Source: Kiritimatiellia bacterium
GTDB taxonomy: Bacteria; Verrucomicrobiota; Kiritimatiellia; RFP12; UBA1067
Assembly (NCBI GenBank): GCA_045598585.1
Contig: JAZLMG010000047.1
Location: forward strand, 1 to 63,273
Direction: 5' to 3'
DNA length: 63,273 nt
Shown here: positions 48,762-49,554 of the stretch, piece by piece
Numbering within the stretch: position 1 is the first letter of the stretch
How the letters are laid out: every line of letters starts with the position of its first letter
The notes under the pieces: model-generated
Databases searched by the model: none
What the model was told of the DNA's origin: nothing
The model's input: the letters and a program-made list of their open reading frames with translations, nothing else
Made by a program: the position numbers and the translations under genes

Positions 48762-49267
48762 ATATCGAGTCCTTATACAACGAAATCGCGCCGAAGTTGA
48801 CGAACTATCTTGTCGCTTCCGGTATGGACTACTCGTCCGCCTGCGATGTCGTGCAAGAAACTTTCGTCCGCATTTGGAAGCGCCGCGACGAGCTTATTGA
48901 CGACGCGAGCCAAATCAGCGGCCTCGCCTACACGATAGCGCGCAATATCCGCACGGATATGGCGCGTAAGGCCGCGAAGATGACTTATCAGGCTGAGATT
49001 ACCGACGAAGATATGAAGGAAACTGCCGCGCCGGTCATTCCAGAAGAGCAAAAGGAAGAGAACGCGAAACTGAGAGAGAAGTTGAACGCGGCCTTGAAAG
49101 AGGTTCCGCCGCTTTTAAGAGACGCTTTTTTGATGTTCCAGGTCGGTGGGCTTTCGATTCGCGAAATTGCTCAAAAGACTGAAGTAAGCGAGAGTTTGGT
49201 TAAAGTAAGGATCTTCCGCGCCAAGGAGAAGCTCCGCGAGTTACTGAAAAATCAAAATCTTTTGTAA
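48758..49267 (+). CDS. ECF RNA polymerase sigma factor
   Basis: Region 2 DVVQETFVRIW...YTIARN; region 4 GLSIREIA...VKVRIFRAKEKLR; ATGA overlap with sctS. Confidence 0.95.
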   Translation: MNIESLYNEIAPKLTNYLVASGMDYSSACDVVQETFVRIWKRRDELIDDASQISGLAYTIARNIRTDMARKAAKMTYQAEITDEDMKETAAPVIPEEQKEENAKLREKLNAALKEVPPLLRDAFLMFQVGGLSIREIAQKTEVSESLVKVRIFRAKEKLRELLKNQNLL

Positions 49268-49291
49268 CCTTTTTCAATTTGACGCGTATAC
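49263..49291 (+). promoter_or_regulatory. ECF-type promoter, copy 7
   Basis: TGTAACC-N15-CGTATAC overlapping the sigma stop codon. Confidence 0.78.
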
Positions 49292-49299
49292 GAAGTGTT

Positions 49300-49554
49300 A
49301 TGAATATTTCACCTAACATAAATATCGGTGGCATCGGTGCCATTAATCAGATCGGAGGATCCGATTTTAGGGCGCTCGATACCGGCAAAACCGAATCGAA
49401 AGCGCTAGACGTCACGGTTAACGCGTTCAGCGATGTCGAGGATGTCGATCCTGTAGTCGAAGCGGCGCTCAACCCCGCTGACGATATGGGTAAACTCTTC
49501 GGAACGGCCTACAATCTTCCTGCGAGGGAGTTCAACCCCGAGTGGTTCAAGTAA
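49300..49554 (+). CDS. Small protein (84 aa), candidate secreted anti-sigma factor
   Basis: Follows the sigma gene and its motif; N-terminus MNISPNINIGG resembles the translocator N-termini; no TM. Confidence 0.5.
   Translation: MNISPNINIGGIGAINQIGGSDFRALDTGKTESKALDVTVNAFSDVEDVDPVVEAALNPADDMGKLFGTAYNLPAREFNPEWFK

Follow-up and report, generated by a model that had tools for sequence, protein, structure and literature searches.

Coupling expression to secretion through the export of an inhibitor is a textbook principle. In flagella the inhibitor is FlgM, a soluble anti-sigma-28 factor of ∼90 amino acids (aa) that has no sensor domain, binds its sigma factor through the C-terminus and keeps the N-terminus free. 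That sigma factor, itself encoded among apparatus genes, controls the late substrate genes, and the FlgM gene has a promoter of the type that it recognises. For sigma factors of the extracytoplasmic function (ECF) kind, Class I anti-sigma domains sit between sigma regions 2 and 4 in solved complexes. HrpL of the Pseudomonas syringae and Erwinia Hrp systems is an ECF sigma factor devoted to the genes of the injectisome and its effectors, and acts through the hrp box, a bipartite promoter element whose –35 part is of the GGAACC type; we know of no dedicated anti-sigma partner of HrpL. In the Bordetella btr locus the ECF sigma factor BtrS is found with an adjacent secreted anti-sigma factor BtrA (BspR), and with BtrV (a STAS protein), BtrU (a phosphatase) and BtrW (a kinase) (PMC7498569). 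The known sigma-factor cases of this design so far are one flagellar (FlgM) and one injectisome (BtrA) case. Direct binding between BtrA and its sigma factor is still debated (PMC7498569). Here we describe an 84-aa protein encoded beside the ECF sigma gene of an injectisome cluster in a Kiritimatiellia bacterium (assembly GCA_045598585.1, contig JAZLMG010000047.1, forward strand; the whole stretch analysed, 63,273 nt, is called the window below), which very probably binds the sigma factor as an anti-sigma factor of a new family.

A Pfam scan identifies a complete injectisome cluster of the Ysc type at ∼26–52 kb of the window. The elements on which the argument turns lie inside it:

48758–49267, + strand: ECF sigma gene, 169 aa, between sctS and sctT
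49264–49269 and 49286–49291, + strand: ECF-type promoter, GTAACC (–35), 16-nt spacer, GTATAC (–10), before the small open reading frame (ORF)
49300 (ATG) to 49552–49554 (TAA), + strand: the small ORF, 84 aa, candidate anti-sigma factor of a new family
49300–49323, + strand: N-terminal island, residues 1–8, MNISPNIN, defined by column conservation; candidate type III secretion signal
49441–49548, + strand: C-terminal island, residues 48–83, predicted sigma-binding segment, given by the complex-model interface and comprising the most conserved columns of the family

The sigma gene, whose ATG overlaps the sctS stop codon as ATGA, encodes regions 2 and 4 only and matches an ECF profile, as is proper to the class (Pfam Sigma70_r4_2, 1.8e-15; Sigma70_r2, 4.3e-08; Sigma70_ECF, 1.7e-06). 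It also matches NCBIfam TIGR02937 (4.8e-24, 84.8 bits against a cut-off of 42.9), and the solved chains nearest to it are ECF sigma factors. The nearest relatives of the sigma factor are from Kiritimatiellia/Kiritimatiellae, part of them submitted under the labels Lentisphaerae or Verrucomicrobia; many belong to genomes assembled from metagenomes of animal gut or rumen. The small ORF follows the sigma stop codon after 32 nt, and its TAA has one base in common with the start codon, ATG, of the next ORF, of 162 aa. The longest frame opens at TTG 49279; the family alignments fix ATG 49300 as the start. That a soluble 84-aa ORF lies directly 3' of an ECF sigma gene had been proposed from the sequence, and the sequence, the ORF list and the hydropathy profile agree: the product is acidic (pI 4.16), has no Cys or His and reaches a maximal 19-residue hydropathy of 0.59. 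No membrane segment or sensor domain is seen in its sequence, and it has no Pfam or NCBIfam match. We are nearly certain that 49300–49554 is a real, conserved gene.

The same sequence-only reading had called the protein FlgM/BtrA-like. As a way of working this stands, as family membership it does not, since none of the 123 family members matches Pfam FlgM (PF04316) even at E ≤ 10 and no solved chain was matched. FlgM complexes are present in the Protein Data Bank, and the family profile run against solved chains gave nothing beyond noise (E 4.9). Conversely, PF04316 found nothing at the locus when run against this genome (best E 0.59, elsewhere); FlgM itself turned up in 2 of the 201 phylum genomes searched, and this genome is not one of them. 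The small protein is like FlgM in size, solubility, lack of a sensor domain, predicted C-terminal sigma binding, free N-terminus and control by the promoter type of its own sigma factor, and the sigma gene, like that of the FlgM partner, lies among apparatus genes although the sigma factor appears to control late (substrate) ones. It differs in that the partner is a two-domain ECF sigma factor, not sigma-28 (FliA), and in that the machine is an injectisome, not a flagellum. The small protein is therefore best called a functional analogue of FlgM and BtrA that belongs to a new family.

A search with the single sequence returned two close metagenome relatives, both of 84 aa, at 80% and 68% identity, and weak matches in sister genomes that all proved to adjoin a sigma gene 3' of sctU. 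A profile built from eight aligned members (A1) and run on 1.84 billion proteins brought the family to 260 representatives (E ≤ 0.001). In the best 150 of these 260 the length is 69–136 aa, nearly always 80–100 aa, except for one unrelated repeat protein. Family matches occur in 101 of the 301 genomes of the order (43 of 124 high-quality genomes; four of twelve families) and in 19 of 401 genomes of a phylum sample, six of them from another class. Among 30 other genomes with an SctE match, at least 23 have a family match and at least 3 have none, while 4 stand outside the matches listed. In the alignment of 123 members (A2) three islands stand out by their conservation: residues 1–8 (M, E/N/D, I, N, hydrophobic, N), residues 36–39 (L-T-I-T) and, with the strongest conservation, the C-terminal block of residues 52–82 with the consensus AL-RDD-LGKLV--AFNLPPPPMP-F. 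Between the first two lies a highly variable stretch rich in Gly, Ala and Ser. The top profile match (P0004, 1822 aa, 16 stretches) is a repeat protein that resembles the family in composition and is not related to it; it was removed from the alignment. P0140 (136 aa) looks like a chimeric gene call. One relative, G102, has two copies of the small gene (on contigs C8, locus L017, and C39), and the C8 copy lies 3' of sctU with no sigma gene behind it.

The family follows the sigma gene closely. A sigma gene is adjacent in 28 of 29 loci centred on family members, and when 80 loci are anchored on the sigma gene instead, profile search places a family member directly 3' of it in 70, with two more diverged ones recognised by eye (L039, L074); the two sets share loci (of 92 pairs, 70 are unique) and come from related genomes, so that these counts are not independent. 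In four further loci (three from the other class, one from the same order) the sigma gene is adjacent, the layout is sctU-sigma-small and the promoter motif is present in all four. Loss of the ORF from beside the sigma gene, which had been named beforehand as a finding that would speak against the proposal, is thus not what we see, as the pair is kept in two orders and two classes. Its place is between sctS and sctT in the window and in L038, L039, L058 and L061, and after sctU in most relatives; in one genus (L016, L018, L019, L036) the order is inverted to sctU-small-sigma and the promoter precedes the pair. A promoter before the pair is the autoregulated layout usual for ECF sigma/anti-sigma pairs. 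Since the pair stays together while its place changes and its order inverts in one genus, function rather than history should account for the linkage. We consider it highly likely that the small protein is a partner of the sigma factor.

The position of the gene amid export-apparatus genes in the window would also suit a structural or assembly component of the injectisome, its neighbourhood to the sigma gene being historical and the complex model described below a false positive; in the calibration of that tool 2 of 215 mismatched pairs did reach the mark. The adjacency, however, follows the sigma gene and no sct gene (mostly after sctU, between sctS and sctT here, inverted in one genus), and the family matches no type III secretion system family in Pfam or NCBIfam. 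We regard such a component as very improbable.

Modelling of the protein together with the sigma factor, which had been put forward as a check, predicts binding. One complex prediction was made from a sigma alignment of 25 rows and the family alignment of 123 rows. It scored an ipSAE of 0.80 (runs at 0.77, 0.80 and 0.81) against 0.00 for the best of three controls. In calibration, 116 out of 157 solved complexes attained the mark, as did 2 out of 215 mismatched pairs; these figures are roughly applicable here, as we used our own alignments. The runs share at least 86% of contacts and the partner pLDDT is at least 58. The confident interface joins residues 48–83 of the small protein to residues 3–40 (regions 2.1–2.2) and 102–169 (region 4) of the sigma factor, with the conserved C-terminal 35 residues wedged between regions 2 and 4 in the model; residues 1–47 stay outside it. 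On the sigma side the interface residues A11, P12, L14, T15, N16, L18 and V19 are nearly invariant within the sigma family, and so are A70, F71, P76 and P80 within the small-protein family. The family has no sequence relative among solved chains, hence recall of a solved homologue is unlikely. The model thus supports binding of the small protein to the sigma factor. A compensatory pair suspected between sigma W17Y and small-protein F71Y did not hold (8 Y/F, 3 W/Y, 1 Y/Y).

Known anti-sigma factors occupy ECF region 2.2 and region 4 together and so keep the sigma factor off core polymerase. The predicted arrangement is like that of the Class I ECF anti-sigma factors (proteins with an anti-sigma domain, the zinc-binding ZAS type such as RsrA, RslA and ChrR among them) in the gene standing beside that of the sigma factor and in the placement between regions 2 and 4. 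It is unlike them in having no anti-sigma Pfam domain (none in the 123 members, which match no other relevant Pfam family either), no Cys or His and so no HxxxCxxC zinc site, no transmembrane segment, and, in place of a four-helix bundle, a binding part of ∼35 residues that ends in a proline-rich tail.

Predicted binding alone leaves the sign of the effect undefined, so the protein could be a secreted substrate (a small effector or an accessory of needle or translocon) that uses the sigma factor as its chaperone, or a co-factor that stabilises the sigma factor, with no transcriptional inhibition in either case. A language-model Atlas search gave a weak lead in this direction (0.89, rank 10), to the Cj0814 family of flagellar-dependent secreted proteins, and otherwise unnamed clusters. 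Against it, the predicted interface covers sigma regions 2.1–2.2 and 4 at once, and contact with both regions is the inhibitory closed state in solved ECF/anti-sigma complexes; moreover, strict pairing with the sigma gene in both gene orders behind their own promoter is a sigma/anti-sigma layout. We take a substrate or co-factor to be rather improbable, and the small protein to be probably inhibitory.

The promoter in front of the small gene offers a view of what the sigma factor may control. The sequence-only reading had placed an ECF motif 8 nt before the small ATG, and it is there: GTAACC-N16-GTATAC at 49264–49291, the –35 element overlapping the sigma stop codon and the –10 element ending 8 nt before the ATG. 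The gap implies that the small-gene mRNA is leaderless or nearly so. In other loci 94 of 99 family members have the motif no more than 200 nt upstream, and three of the five misses show it with a different spacing; the distance from motif to ATG is 8–9 nt in 10 loci, mostly from the closest sigma relatives of the window, and 16–75 nt elsewhere, so the near-leaderless layout is a conserved trait of the subclade that includes this genome. The pattern GTAACC-N14–19-CGTAT has six matches on the + strand of the window against 0.04 expected, a number reached in none of 100 shuffles, and a seventh copy is a variant. Besides the copy already listed they are:

1259–1286, + strand: before a CesT-type chaperone operon (ATG 1306)
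5783–5810, + strand: variant copy (GTAATC as –10), seventh in the window, before a 506-aa ORF of no known family at 5858
9573–9600, + strand: before a 532-aa ORF of no known family at 9641
18790–18817, + strand: before a 1978-aa beta-helix protein at 18836
26316–26343, + strand: before a 230-aa ORF at 26364 (MNINLN), 5' of the translocator chaperone gene
27564–27592, + strand: before SctE (27616, MEISLN) and SctB

Eight full-consensus sites are found in the whole 2.0-Mb assembly (93% complete), each facing a downstream gene, seven of them in the window and one on contig C19. The C19 copy, near 3651 on the – strand, precedes a 453-aa ORF. The chaperone operon behind the 1259 copy includes a 1059-aa ORF, and a Fic-domain ORF (24850–26319) lies directly 5' of the copy at 26316. 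Left out of the count were eight of the 16 genome-wide matches to GTAACC-N14–16-CGTA, which lack the rest of the consensus; a looser match at 46100 (TTAACT...) in the SctP-like gene was rejected as it lies inside coding sequence and is off consensus. In relatives, the motif is present in 19 of 29 translocator loci, mostly just 5' of SctE- or SctB-sized ORFs. None of the seven window copies is directly before needle, basal-body or export-gate genes, so that the sites look like a late, substrate-gene regulon, and the motif probably marks the secreted repertoire. As the assembly has only three sigma-70 region 2 matches (RpoD, the injectisome sigma factor and a weak one on contig C55), it is reasonable to attribute the motif to the injectisome sigma factor. 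The C55 gene, an ECF-like sigma gene at ∼19000–20800 on the – strand, adjoins a Ser/Thr protein kinase gene and is of the kinase-paired ECF type. The injectisome sigma factor is like HrpL in that it would serve injectisome and effector-like genes through a bipartite box, and unlike it in having a conserved partner that is predicted to bind it.

The N-terminal island, M-x-I-N-x-N, is conserved apart from the C-terminal block and outside the predicted interface. It is conserved as a peptide, as the synonymous codons vary, and this end is enriched in Asn (5.3-fold) and Ile (3.7-fold) and has few charged residues. The N-termini with which it had been compared are confirmed in the sequence, MNINLN at 26364, MEISLN at 27616 (SctE) and MDITSIN at 28702 (SctB), and it also resembles the N-termini of translocator homologues behind the same motif in relatives. 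Judged by these resemblances its most likely role would be that of a type III secretion signal of the translocator kind. With neither a membrane segment nor a sensor domain, the protein shows no other route by which a signal might reach it. For export of the protein by the injectisome we see, on these sequence grounds, the arguments as nearly balanced.

With the Bordetella system the comparison can be taken further. As there, the gene stands beside the ECF sigma gene of an injectisome in a locus with a STAS protein, a SpoIIE phosphatase and a kinase; unlike BtrU and BtrW, phosphatase and kinase are here fused in one protein. The modelled sigma-binding helix of BtrA comprises residues 136–164 and its chaperone-binding N-terminus residues 1–40 (PMC10732220). 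The small protein is like BtrA in having an unstructured N-terminus and a modelled contact with the N-terminal helix of the sigma factor (PMC10732220). It is unlike the much longer BtrA in its 84 aa and its predicted interface at 48–83; P0004 excepted, nothing longer than 136 aa is found among the best 150 of the 260 profile matches. It is unlike BtrA also in that BtrA needs a CesT chaperone, and none of the CesT-type genes of the window is linked to the small protein:

1306: CesT-type chaperone gene (Pfam)
1704: CesT-type chaperone gene (Pfam)
5347: CesT-type chaperone gene (Pfam)

Behind the export-apparatus genes the window holds the pieces that recall the rest of the Bordetella locus:

52319–52609, + strand: STAS-domain protein of the anti-sigma antagonist type (Pfam STAS, 5.7e-15)
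53320–55278, + strand: SpoIIE phosphatase fused to an RsbW-like HATPase_c_2 domain, 652 aa (Pfam SpoIIE, 1.4e-48; HATPase_c_2, 8.7e-11)

The STAS protein and the SpoIIE-HATPase fusion are a partner-switching module. The fusion has hydrophobic N-terminal segments, as judged by eye from the sequence, and this qualifies the earlier claim that no membrane anti-sigma factor lies nearby: classical anti-sigma domains are indeed absent, and yet a 652-aa protein with a hydrophobic N-terminus and an HATPase domain is encoded 3.8 kb downstream. The set at 52319–55278 also holds a periplasmic solute-binding-type protein, a possible ligand-binding input.

The module gives substance to another explanation, in which the small protein acts as an anti-sigma factor but always stays in the cytoplasm, the sigma factor being freed by partner switching or by proteolysis and the N-terminus serving as a degradation tag or docking site. 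The evidence for binding and linkage fits this equally well, the STAS and SpoIIE-HATPase genes lie 2.8–3.8 kb 3' of the small gene in the window, and in L053, L055, L070, L073 and L082 a STAS gene, mostly followed by a SpoIIE gene, is directly 3' of the small gene. In known partner-switching systems, on the other hand, the anti-sigma factor is the kinase itself, while the small protein has no kinase domain; the likeness of its N-terminal island to translocators speaks against a protein that stays in the cell; and the Bordetella homologues BtrU, BtrW and BtrV act on secretion, none of them being a negative regulator (PMC7498569). We consider an anti-sigma factor without export unlikely.

The reading that we prefer, a new-family anti-sigma factor of the injectisome ECF sigma factor that clamps it with the C-terminus and is exported by way of the N-terminus, would work as follows. 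The C-terminal ∼35 residues would insert between sigma region 2 (helices 2.1–2.2, the core-polymerase surface) and region 4 and hold the sigma factor closed, off RNA polymerase, the remainder of the protein being a variable linker rich in Gly, Ala and Ser with the M-x-I-N-x-N segment at its end. Sigma factor would be produced along with export-apparatus genes (sctR-sctS-sigma) and silenced by the small protein until the machine becomes competent for translocator-class substrates, at which point the small protein would leave the cell. The freed sigma factor would then transcribe the GTAACC-N16-GTATAC regulon, that is, translocators, chaperones, effector-like genes and the small gene. Because the small gene belongs to this regulon, the system would shut down again when export stops.

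Several points weigh against this proposal. The binding predicted by the complex model, which was compared with three controls, may or may not be specific to this sigma factor within the ECF class. Covariation between the two families lent the interface no support: among the 50 most strongly coupled column pairs 2 fell inside it where 3.7 were expected, in a set of 70 unique pairs that has little power because the interface barely varies. Eight of the 80 sigma loci have no family member directly downstream, two of them showing by eye an ORF that resembles a chaperone, and G116, G130 and G142 at least have an SctE match with no family match. The window copy and its two nearest relatives are off consensus at a number of conserved positions near the C-terminus (R59P, D60A, P76R). 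The loose N-terminal pattern M[DENK][IVL][NSTD]x[NG] is rare and in this respect favours export, as it fits 17 out of the 20,532 Met codons scanned in the genome, three of them the promoter-driven starts at 26364, 27616 and 49300; but it was defined after these genes had been seen, and its enrichment is no independent test. The case for export consists of one line of evidence, the N-terminal resemblance, and the STAS protein and SpoIIE-HATPase fusion nearby could free the anti-sigma factor or stand in for it with no export at all. Taken as a whole, the proposal appears to us credible and yet tentative, falling a little short of an even balance.

Other parts of the region deserve a short account. 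The cluster parts identified by Pfam are:

Substrate side: translocator chaperone, SctE (SseC family), SctB and gatekeeper (HrpJ/TyeA)
Apparatus: secretin, SctV, SctD, SctF, SctI, SctJ, SctL, SctN, SctO, SctR, SctS, SctT and SctU
49554–50042, + strand: AIM24-like ORF, 162 aa, overlapping the small ORF as TAATG and sctT as ATGA

The match of the 162-aa ORF to Pfam AIM24 is weak and under the cut-off (0.003), and its Atlas feature hits are to AIM24 clusters (0.91). It accompanies the sigma-small pair in L038, L039, L058 and L061, all with the sctS-sctT placement. Terminators between the sigma gene and the genes downstream are not above background (10 found, 11.6 expected). Among sequencing runs searched for 48400–50400, no RNA run matched and two DNA runs matched with small word shares. 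An acidic ORF of 117 aa without a family, probably helical, lies 3' of sctU in the window (51955–52308), whereas in several relatives its place is immediately behind the small gene (L074, L079, L081, L095); it could be part of one regulatory module with the pair. The SctP-like protein (45319–47001, 560 aa), whose C-terminus matches HpaP weakly, carries long internal repeats, nearly identical to one another, in which Val, Glu, Lys and Pro abound and which would suit an unusually long needle-length ruler. On the 5' side of the cluster lie the CesT-type chaperone genes, large ORFs without a family, the Fic-domain protein and the 1978-aa beta-helix protein. Amid these effector-like genes, at 8232–18625, there is a patch of mobile or defence type with an AAA/DUF4143 ATPase, HipA, RhuM and DUF3990 with a helix-turn-helix (HTH) protein, which suggests that the effector region is a mosaic.

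By title and abstract, a literature search for Kiritimatiell and type III secretion returned nothing on these injectisomes, their regulation or their targets. The locus offers a compact system for such a study: a 169-aa sigma factor, an 84-aa partner, a predicted binding peptide of 35 residues and a sharply defined promoter, whose motif can serve as a marker for the secreted repertoire of uncultured gut and rumen Kiritimatiellia. It is possible, if rather less than probable, that the injectisomes of gut Kiritimatiellia and of the sister class have independently re-invented the FliA/FlgM checkpoint, with a sequence-unrelated, largely disordered anti-sigma factor of ∼90 residues that is exported as a translocator-class substrate and for which the sigma factor may double as secretion chaperone. 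If so, transcription of translocators and effectors would start only after needle completion and the substrate switch in these bacteria, and a third family, unrelated in sequence to FlgM and BtrA, would mean that the export-of-inhibitor design has evolved repeatedly.

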